This document shows positions 63,372 through 63,808 of a stretch of 64,000 nt of DNA, in pieces. The notes under the pieces were generated by a model. The model saw nothing but the letters and a program-made list of their open reading frames with translations. It did no database searches and was not told the origin of the DNA. Source of the DNA: an uncultured Candidatus Saccharibacteria bacterium. Lineage in GTDB: Bacteria; Patescibacteriota; Minisyncoccia; Phycocordibacterales; CAYSCM01. The stretch is from assembly GCA_964429815.1 (NCBI GenBank), contig CAYSCM010000001.1, positions 164,240 through 228,239 of the forward strand, written 5' to 3'. Position 1 is the first letter of the stretch. Each line of letters opens with the position of its first letter. The position numbers were made by a program, and so were the translations under genes.

Positions 63372-63416
63372 TTTCACGTGAAAATTAGTTACACGTGAAA
63401 ATGTTACATGTGAAAT
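63372..63416. promoter_or_regulatory. three tandem palindromic sites (TTTCACGTGAAA-like, ~16-bp period) upstream of yraN
   Basis: TTTCACGTGAAAAT, TTACACGTGAAAAT and TTACATGTGAAAT. The first is a perfect 12-bp palindrome. Candidate operator or iteron array. Confidence 0.5.
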
Positions 63417-63427
63417 GGCAATCCACA

Positions 63428-63808
63428 ATGAACGAACTGGGAAGACTCGGAGAGGACATTGTTTGCCGCTATCTTTCTGATAGGGGGTATCGGATTGTTT
63501 CAAGGAACTATCGTAAAAAGTGGGGTGAAATTGATGTAATTACGACTAAGGGCGGAATCCTCCATTTCATTGAAGTTAAAGCTGTTTCGCGTGAAAATCT
63601 TGACTCAATTTCACAAGAAACAAATTCCTATCGTCCAGAGGACAATGCTCATCCGGAAAAGCTCAGACGCCTTGCAAGAACCGTTGAAACATATTTACTG
63701 GAAAAAGGTGTAGAAGGTGGGCAGTGGAGATTTGATGTTGCGGCTGTCTATATCGATCAGAGGAAAAAGAAGGCAAAAGTTTCTCTTCTCGAGAACGTTA
63801 TTTTATAG
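63428..63808 (+). CDS. YraN/UPF0102-family endonuclease-like protein
   Basis: MNELGRLGEDIVCRYL...GEIDVI matches the YraN restriction-endonuclease-like core. Confidence 0.7.
   Translation: MNELGRLGEDIVCRYLSDRGYRIVSRNYRKKWGEIDVITTKGGILHFIEVKAVSRENLDSISQETNSYRPEDNAHPEKLRRLARTVETYLLEKGVEGGQWRFDVAAVYIDQRKKKAKVSLLENVIL

Follow-up and report, generated by a model that had tools for sequence, protein, structure and literature searches.

The window, meaning the whole stretch of 64,000 nucleotides that was analysed, carries near its right-hand end an array of three short palindromes placed directly before yraN, a tRNA gene and a block of tandem DnaA boxes to the left of the array, and two further sites within the yraN coding sequence. 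The dnaA-dnaN region lies approximately 41 kb away and is followed in the window by yidC and then a jag-like gene. Among the genes of a minus-strand run at 25931-41601 are those for a type IV secretion pilin-like protein (27201-28154) and a TraG/VirB4-like ATPase (29780-31612), along with several for large proteins that have no Pfam match. The features on which the argument draws are these:

21326-22426, minus strand: dnaN
22427-22663, minus strand: dnaA-dnaN spacer, likely oriC, with a DnaA box CTATCCACA at 22542-22550 followed by TAGTAGGAATATAG and AT-rich DNA
22664-24049, minus strand: dnaA
63015-63086, plus strand: tRNA-Gly(GCC), the conserved left neighbour of the module
63300-63334, plus strand: tandem DnaA-box block TGTGGATAA-atc-TGTGAGTAT-GTGTATTAAGGACA, a neighbour of the palindrome array and not part of it
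63370-63385, no strand assigned: parS-type site 1, AGTTTCACGTGAAAAT, matching GTTTCACGTGAAAC at 13 of 14 positions
63372-63383: core of site 1, TTTCACGTGAAA, a perfect 12-bp palindrome
63387-63402, no strand assigned: parS-type site 2 as a 16-mer, AGTTACACGTGAAAAT
63389-63400: core of site 2, TTACACGTGAAA, with one mismatch
63402-63417, no strand assigned: parS-type site 3 as a 16-mer, TGTTACATGTGAAATG, weaker, with CATGTG at its core
63404-63415: core of site 3, TTACATGTGAAA, with two mismatches
63428-63808, plus strand: yraN, encoding a UPF0102 nuclease-fold protein of 126 aa (Pfam E = 7.5e-21)
63572-63625: conserved segment of YraN, residues about 49-66
63583-63598, no strand assigned: intragenic site TGTTTCGCGTGAAAAT, encoding V-S-R-E-N of YraN and found at the same position in relatives
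63607-63621, match on the minus strand: degenerate second intragenic site AATTTCACAAGAAAC, encoding I-S-Q-E-T

Examination of the region before yraN confirmed the description given in the sequence-only reading of one perfect and two near-perfect palindromes, with start-to-start spacings in the triplet of 17 and 15 bp. When two flanking bases are counted on each side, the resulting 16-mer units nearly abut across 63370-63417, and 10 nt separate the end of the array from the yraN ATG at 63428. The list of open reading frames starts yraN at a GTG at 63395 and there is an alternative in-frame ATG at 63401; both of these starts fall within the array and, judging from its length, a protein of 135 aa from the same cluster would fit the ATG at 63401. 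A search of the window for GTTWCACGTGAAAAT with up to three mismatches returned 12 matches against 2.65 expected, a number reached in none of 100 shuffles, and 7 of the 12 lie within 63370-63621; the array is beyond chance expectation. The number of CACGTG hexamers in the window, 9 against approximately 18 expected, is unremarkable. The G+C content falls to 35-46% over 63250-63850, compared with approximately 53% for the whole window.

Related loci were gathered from two sources, three close relatives by exact look-up of YraN and 80 metagenome loci by YraN alignment, giving 83 yraN loci; the sources of the YraN homologues label them as Paceibacteria, Parcubacteria or Patescibacteria, and the nearest is only 65% identical. 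A 12-mer search allowing at most one mismatch identified 156 sites in 877 kb of related loci, 117 of them between -400 and +500 of the yraN start, and 36 of the 39 remaining sites sit 0.47-3.0 kb upstream, in or around cca. With a stricter 14-mer, a site is present between -400 and +450 of the yraN start in 68 of the 83 loci, and the 42 loci that cover -3200 to +450 hold a mean of 3.0 sites (median 3, maximum 6), compared with a single site in the 631 kb outside this interval, an enrichment of about 500-fold in the relatives. The intragenic sites of the relatives lie at +100 to +200 of yraN and others lie 0.5-3 kb upstream. For this genome, a total of 81 kb could be searched, comprising the window, an identical contig that runs 10 kb past its right end (L001) and a further one that runs 7.6 kb past its left end (L208), and no other 12-mer site with at most one mismatch was found in it. 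Within the DNA covered, the extreme localisation of the sites is thereby established, as is their conservation across a deep lineage, and the array withstands the check that had been proposed for it, a search for the motif elsewhere and in related genomes, given that the motif recurs at the same locus in most of the 83. Synteny is also kept: cca on the minus strand, tRNA-Arg(TCG) and tRNA-Gly(GCC), yraN and then tRNA-Pro(TGG). The three tRNA genes hold their place near yraN and are individually inverted in many genomes (L122-L206), which points to frequent small local inversions at the yraN locus.

Comparison with known elements identified the motif. The conserved chromosomal parS consensus bound by ParB/Spo0J is TGTTNCACGTGAAACA (PMC7022226). 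Against its 14-bp core, GTTNCACGTGNAAC, sites 1 and 2 match at 13 of 14 positions, and site 3 and the intragenic site at 63583-63598 at 12 of 14. The outer positions of the window sites are imperfect, the right arm reading GTGAAAAT and not GTGAAACA; the full canonical TGTTTCACGTGAAACA is found at the same locus in several relatives, at many sites, and the third site of one relative (L122), homologous to site 3, reads GTTACACATGAAAT. In the upstream sites of the related loci, the unconstrained base that precedes the 12-mer is G in 79 of 93 cases and the base that follows it is C in 50 of 93. As these flanking bases lie outside the 12-mer used in the search and fit GTTTCACGTGAAAC, the palindrome extends as parS does, and the sequence identity with parS is established. 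This identity had been missed when the array was first noticed, as had the two copies inside yraN. It is considered probable, with good confidence, that the array is a parS cluster, the ParB-bound chromosomal centromere of a genome of the Patescibacteria (class Paceibacteria).

The two copies inside yraN lie in protein-coding DNA. The second is near-perfect in relatives, for example ATTTCACGTGAAAC in locus L124. The YraN of this clade carries a conserved ...EVKxVSRE...(V/I)SxET... segment whose DNA is the intragenic site pair, and other YraN proteins have, as far as is known, a shorter stretch at this place, after the catalytic E-x-K. Among the 23 non-redundant loci that encode V-S-R-E there, the codons are exactly GTTTCACGTGAA (GTT TCA CGT GAA) in 11, compared with 0.7% expected from the codon usage of the same 23 loci, and CGT encodes the arginine in 21 of 23, where the background is 17%. 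The nominal P value of this test is inflated by common descent of the loci. Nevertheless, synonymous positions should be saturated at the 46-65% YraN identity found among the related Paceibacteria loci, and for this reason the codon bias indicates selection on the DNA. Selection at the DNA level within the coding sequence is counted among the established results, and it indicates that the intragenic sites are DNA elements in their own right and not a by-product of the protein sequence.

The position of these copies bears on two other explanations. First, the sites may form an RNA structure such as an attenuator or riboswitch, since they may lie in the 5' leader of yraN and palindromes can form hairpins. 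However, the predicted fold is no better than that of shuffled sequence (z = -0.50), there is no match to an Rfam family, and equivalent sites occur in the coding DNA of two genes on opposite strands, which refutes this explanation and leaves it a negligible probability. Second, the array may be an operator through which a dedicated transcription factor, or YraN itself, regulates yraN, in which case the likeness to parS would be coincidental. The location of three sites directly before or overlapping the yraN start, the association with yraN in most of the 83 loci, which could point to a gene-specific role, and the failure to find ParB nearby are all consistent with an operator. This is nonetheless very unlikely for several reasons: the sites are not confined to a promoter or leader but, unusually for an operator, occur within the coding sequences of yraN and cca and around cca, as far as 3 kb upstream; the likeness to parS spans 14-16 bp and includes positions that were not used in the search; and the gene tables show no conserved regulator gene at the locus. 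No such operator is known for YraN, which belongs to a widespread family (UPF0102).

The boundaries of the locus carry traces of rearrangement. At 63087-63239, after tRNA-Gly(GCC), there is a 134-nt G+C-rich insert that the relatives do not have; it contains an inverted copy of the tRNA T-arm (63107-63124), and its last 17 nt repeat the tRNA 3' end exactly and in direct orientation (63072-63088 = 63223-63239). On the other side, a truncated 5' half of tRNA-Pro (63866-63906), with GGG in the anticodon loop for TGG, stands 62 nt before the intact tRNA-Pro(TGG) at 63927-64000. The tRNA-Gly and tRNA-Pro fragments exactly bound the AT-rich island at 63240-63865, which suggests that the cassette of yraN and its putative parS sites may have been replaced by recombination via the flanking tRNA genes. 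An island flanked in this way by the 3' fragment of a tRNA-Gly and the 5' half of a tRNA-Pro would also suit plasmid or phage iterons, or a dif or att site for site-specific recombination that a mobile element left behind, as would the 15-17 bp direct repeats and the tyrosine recombinase gene at 57982-58893. There is, however, no rep gene; the setting is a chromosome whose dnaA and dnaN lie in the window, and the neighbours are housekeeping genes in conserved synteny. Furthermore, the recombinase is a conserved Xer-type neighbour and not a cargo integrase, and the sites within coding sequences are under selection. The palindromes also lack both the two-arm-plus-spacer layout known for dif and the architecture of att. 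Synteny already largely refutes iterons or a recombination site, which must be regarded as extremely improbable. In summary, the part of the sequence-only reading that saw an array of protein-binding palindromes probably stands, while the identities it offered for them, operator, iterons or recombination site, do not.

If the sites are parS, a ParB protein is to be expected. The hunt for a helix-turn-helix binder that had been advised was a sensible one, given that ParB is a helix-turn-helix protein, but neither a ParB nor a ParA homologue was found in the 81 kb of this genome (the window, L001 and L208), and none was found in 877 kb around yraN of 84 related loci. The search comprised a motif regular expression, Pfam scans of about 40 window ORFs, phmmer with Spo0J and Soj as queries, and profiles built from control loci. 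As a positive control, the same queries readily found ParB and ParA in the control loci. A search of a protein database with a ParB consensus returned Actinobacteria only. The parAB genes usually lie near oriC, and the failure to find them there slightly lowers the odds that the sites are parS. A cognate ParB is nevertheless likely to exist in this genome, judging from the sites themselves, since it seems improbable that a different protein has converged on the same 14-16 bp at an origin-proximal cluster; we infer that such a ParB is encoded elsewhere in the genome and binds these sites, with whatever effect it may have on yraN. A literature search for ParB, parS and the partitioning of chromosomes in the candidate phyla radiation or Patescibacteria found nothing relevant, and no published link between YraN and parS was found. 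The mention of 'chromosome partitioning' in a paper on TM7x was discarded, as it concerns host genes.

The close packing of the sites is not without parallel. Two parS sites 1-8 bp apart occur in at least 120 loci of reference genomes; the matches listed are mostly from Streptomyces and also include Mycobacteriales, Clostridia, Acidobacteriota, Alphaproteobacteria, Dehalococcoidia and others, and this genome is not among them. Among the matches listed, the start-to-start distance of the pairs is 14-20 bp and falls at 15-17 bp in 28 loci. At least 15 of 120 retrieved 8-kb stretches with such pairs carry parB, with ParA beside many of the pairs too, and in Eubacterium multiforme two abutting perfect sites follow the parB ORF by 6 nt. 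Abutting tandem parS therefore has a precedent in bacteria that encode ParB.

A perfect DnaA box had been reported at 63300 in the same AT-rich region; it is indeed present (TGTGGATAA at 63300-63308) and its connection with the array is real, in that the box belongs to a conserved tandem DnaA-box block. In the consensus of this block, AAAAC-TGTGGATAA-nnn-TGTGGAyAT-GTGTATAAAGGACA, a perfect DnaA box is followed after a 3-nt spacer by a weaker box and then by a third, overlapping one. The block is present in 72 of 80 related loci, in constant orientation, 68-680 bp before yraN, and it is nearly position-specific, 59 of the 71 matches to TGTGGATAANNNTGTG in 857 kb falling at the block position. 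After the block, in the window (63330-63345) and in most related loci, there is an inverted repeat AAGGACA...TGTCCTT whose loop varies between genomes, from 1 to about 40 nt; the loop in the window is too short for a hairpin.

Just upstream of the array stands a 35-nt block in which 3 nt separate a perfect DnaA box from a second box, and the DNA from this block to yraN is AT-rich. This raises the possibility that the locus is a replication origin or another DnaA-controlled element, in which the palindromes would act with the tandem DnaA boxes in the control of initiation and not as a ParB centromere. The skew data can be read in the same direction, as the GC skew and the orientation-corrected GC3 skew change sign across the locus. 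Raw GC skew is lower to the left than to the right of yraN in 20 of 22 related loci, which are not independent because the same orthologous genes lie on each side; the orientation-corrected GC3 skew shifts in the relatives as well as in the window, and in plus-strand genes of this genome (window and L001, boundary at about 63.3 kb) it rises from a left-hand value of about -0.17 to one of +0.08 on the other side. This shift could mark a replication switch, or it could reflect only the codon bias of the conserved neighbouring genes. In three relatives dnaA lies 8-9 kb from yraN (L126, L129, L130), and in one of these, L130, where dnaA is 8.7 kb to the right, the skew is negative on both flanks.

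The organisation of the DnaA boxes argues against an origin at this place. An origin core consists of one or more DnaA boxes, at least three DnaA-trios within 16 bp on the correct side and then AT-rich DNA (PMC8287927). Such a core is found in the dnaA-dnaN spacer, where DnaA boxes at a 12-nt period, a box followed by nTA repeats that resemble DnaA-trios, and very AT-rich DNA before dnaN are clear in L130 (20040-20372), L126 (12190-12460) and L129 (14620-14900) and more degenerate in the window. At the yraN block the arrangement is absent: the boxes read TGTGGATAA, so that trios would be expected on their left, where a tRNA gene abuts in L126, and the boxes face away from the AT-rich stretch with no trios after them. 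Furthermore, the palindrome itself is not a DnaA motif. Raw GC skew pointed to dnaA and orientation-corrected skew to yraN; a placement of oriC at yraN was considered and demoted, given that the loci are non-independent and that the better core lies at dnaA-dnaN. An origin or DnaA-controlled element as the identity of the palindromes is thus highly improbable, and the block is treated here as a second conserved element, predicted to bind DnaA, beside the putative centromere. The origin-proximal position of the parS-type array is itself among the established results.

The steps by which ParABS works are established biology in other systems, and for this genome we infer them only by extension. 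A ParB dimer would recognise each 14-16 bp palindrome through its helix-turn-helix domain, and binding to parS would trigger the CTP-dependent closure of ParB into a clamp that slides onto the flanking DNA, leaving the site to be reloaded. Several adjacent nucleation sites would in this way give rise to one dense partition complex near the replication origin, which would be moved by ParA, used for the loading of SMC, or both. The presence of several nucleation sites within 250 bp would make the loading of ParB robust, and centres spaced 15-17 bp apart would put neighbouring ParB dimers on roughly opposite faces of the helix. By analogy with parS3 and parS4 of Pseudomonas aeruginosa, occupancy by ParB before and inside yraN would probably lower its transcription as a side effect. 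A scan for sigma-70 promoters between the DnaA-box block and yraN found none. The sole good sigma-70-type match nearby, TTGAGA-16-TATAGT with an upstream TG at 62967-62994, stands just before tRNA-Gly, and transcription of yraN may therefore start at a non-canonical promoter or be shared with the tRNA gene.

A more far-reaching interpretation is that the whole interval from tRNA-Gly to yraN forms a composite origin-region control module specific to Paceibacteria, made up of tandem DnaA boxes, abutting parS and a yraN whose protein sequence (the clade-specific segment ...EVKxVSRE...VSxET) has been shaped to carry centromere sites. This is unlikely; were it true, DnaA and ParB acting on the same 150 bp would couple initiation, segregation and the expression of yraN, or YraN would work at the partition complex. 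In its extreme form, it would make the locus a second or alternative replication origin.

Comparison of the putative parS cluster with known systems indicates both what is common and what is particular to it. With the Spo0J sites of Bacillus subtilis and chromosomal parS in general (TGTTNCACGTGAAACA) it has in common the palindrome, the origin-proximal position and, within the 81 kb searched, a small number of copies, and one parS site of B. subtilis lies within spo0J. It differs from the chromosomal parS of ParABS systems in being a triplet at 15-17 bp, in being anchored to yraN and not to parB, in its right arm, GTGAAAAT, and in having a ParB that is predicted only. Streptomyces, Mycobacteriales and Clostridia have parS doublets, such as that of Eubacterium multiforme (ATGTTTCACGTGAAACATGTTTCACGTGAAACAT, just after parB), which likewise consist of full sites, two of them, 14-20 bp from start to start, a spacing that brings adjacent ParB dimers to roughly opposite sides of the helix; these are pairs, often beside parB, whereas here there is a triplet with additional intragenic sites and no parB in 81 kb. 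Plasmid centromeres such as sopC of F, and iterons, also present head-to-tail repeats that bind protein, but their sequences are specific to the plasmid and lie beside its own par or rep genes, whereas the sequence found here is that of universal chromosomal parS in a housekeeping context. In Pseudomonas aeruginosa, the genes adjacent to the intergenic sites parS3 and parS4 are repressed (PMC7022226). These sites resemble the present ones in lying in a promoter region where ParB silences a neighbour as a by-product of centromere function; the array described here is tighter and continues into coding sequence, and the effect on yraN would be the counterpart proposed for it. As for the neighbouring block, it shares with the tandem DnaA-box pairs of oriC, which form the basal unwinding system (PMC8287927), and with DnaA-box clusters outside oriC the consensus box, the 3-nt spacer and the weaker second box, which is the commonest origin arrangement; unlike the pairs of oriC, it has no DnaA-trios on the expected side.

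The kind of element proposed here, parS, is an ordinary and well-known one; in this case the sites make up a cluster that stays with yraN, even within its coding sequence, throughout a lineage of ultra-small Patescibacteria. Chromosome segregation and the organisation of the origin are essentially undescribed in Patescibacteria, and a sharply localised and conserved parS cluster would provide a predicted centromere for these uncultured bacteria with tiny genomes, and would help to recognise the origin region where assemblies are fragmented. The locus would also be a clear case of a coding sequence constrained by an embedded, predicted DNA-binding site. Given that only about 100 bp separate the DnaA boxes from the predicted parS sites, it would become possible in this group to test for cross-talk of initiation with segregation.
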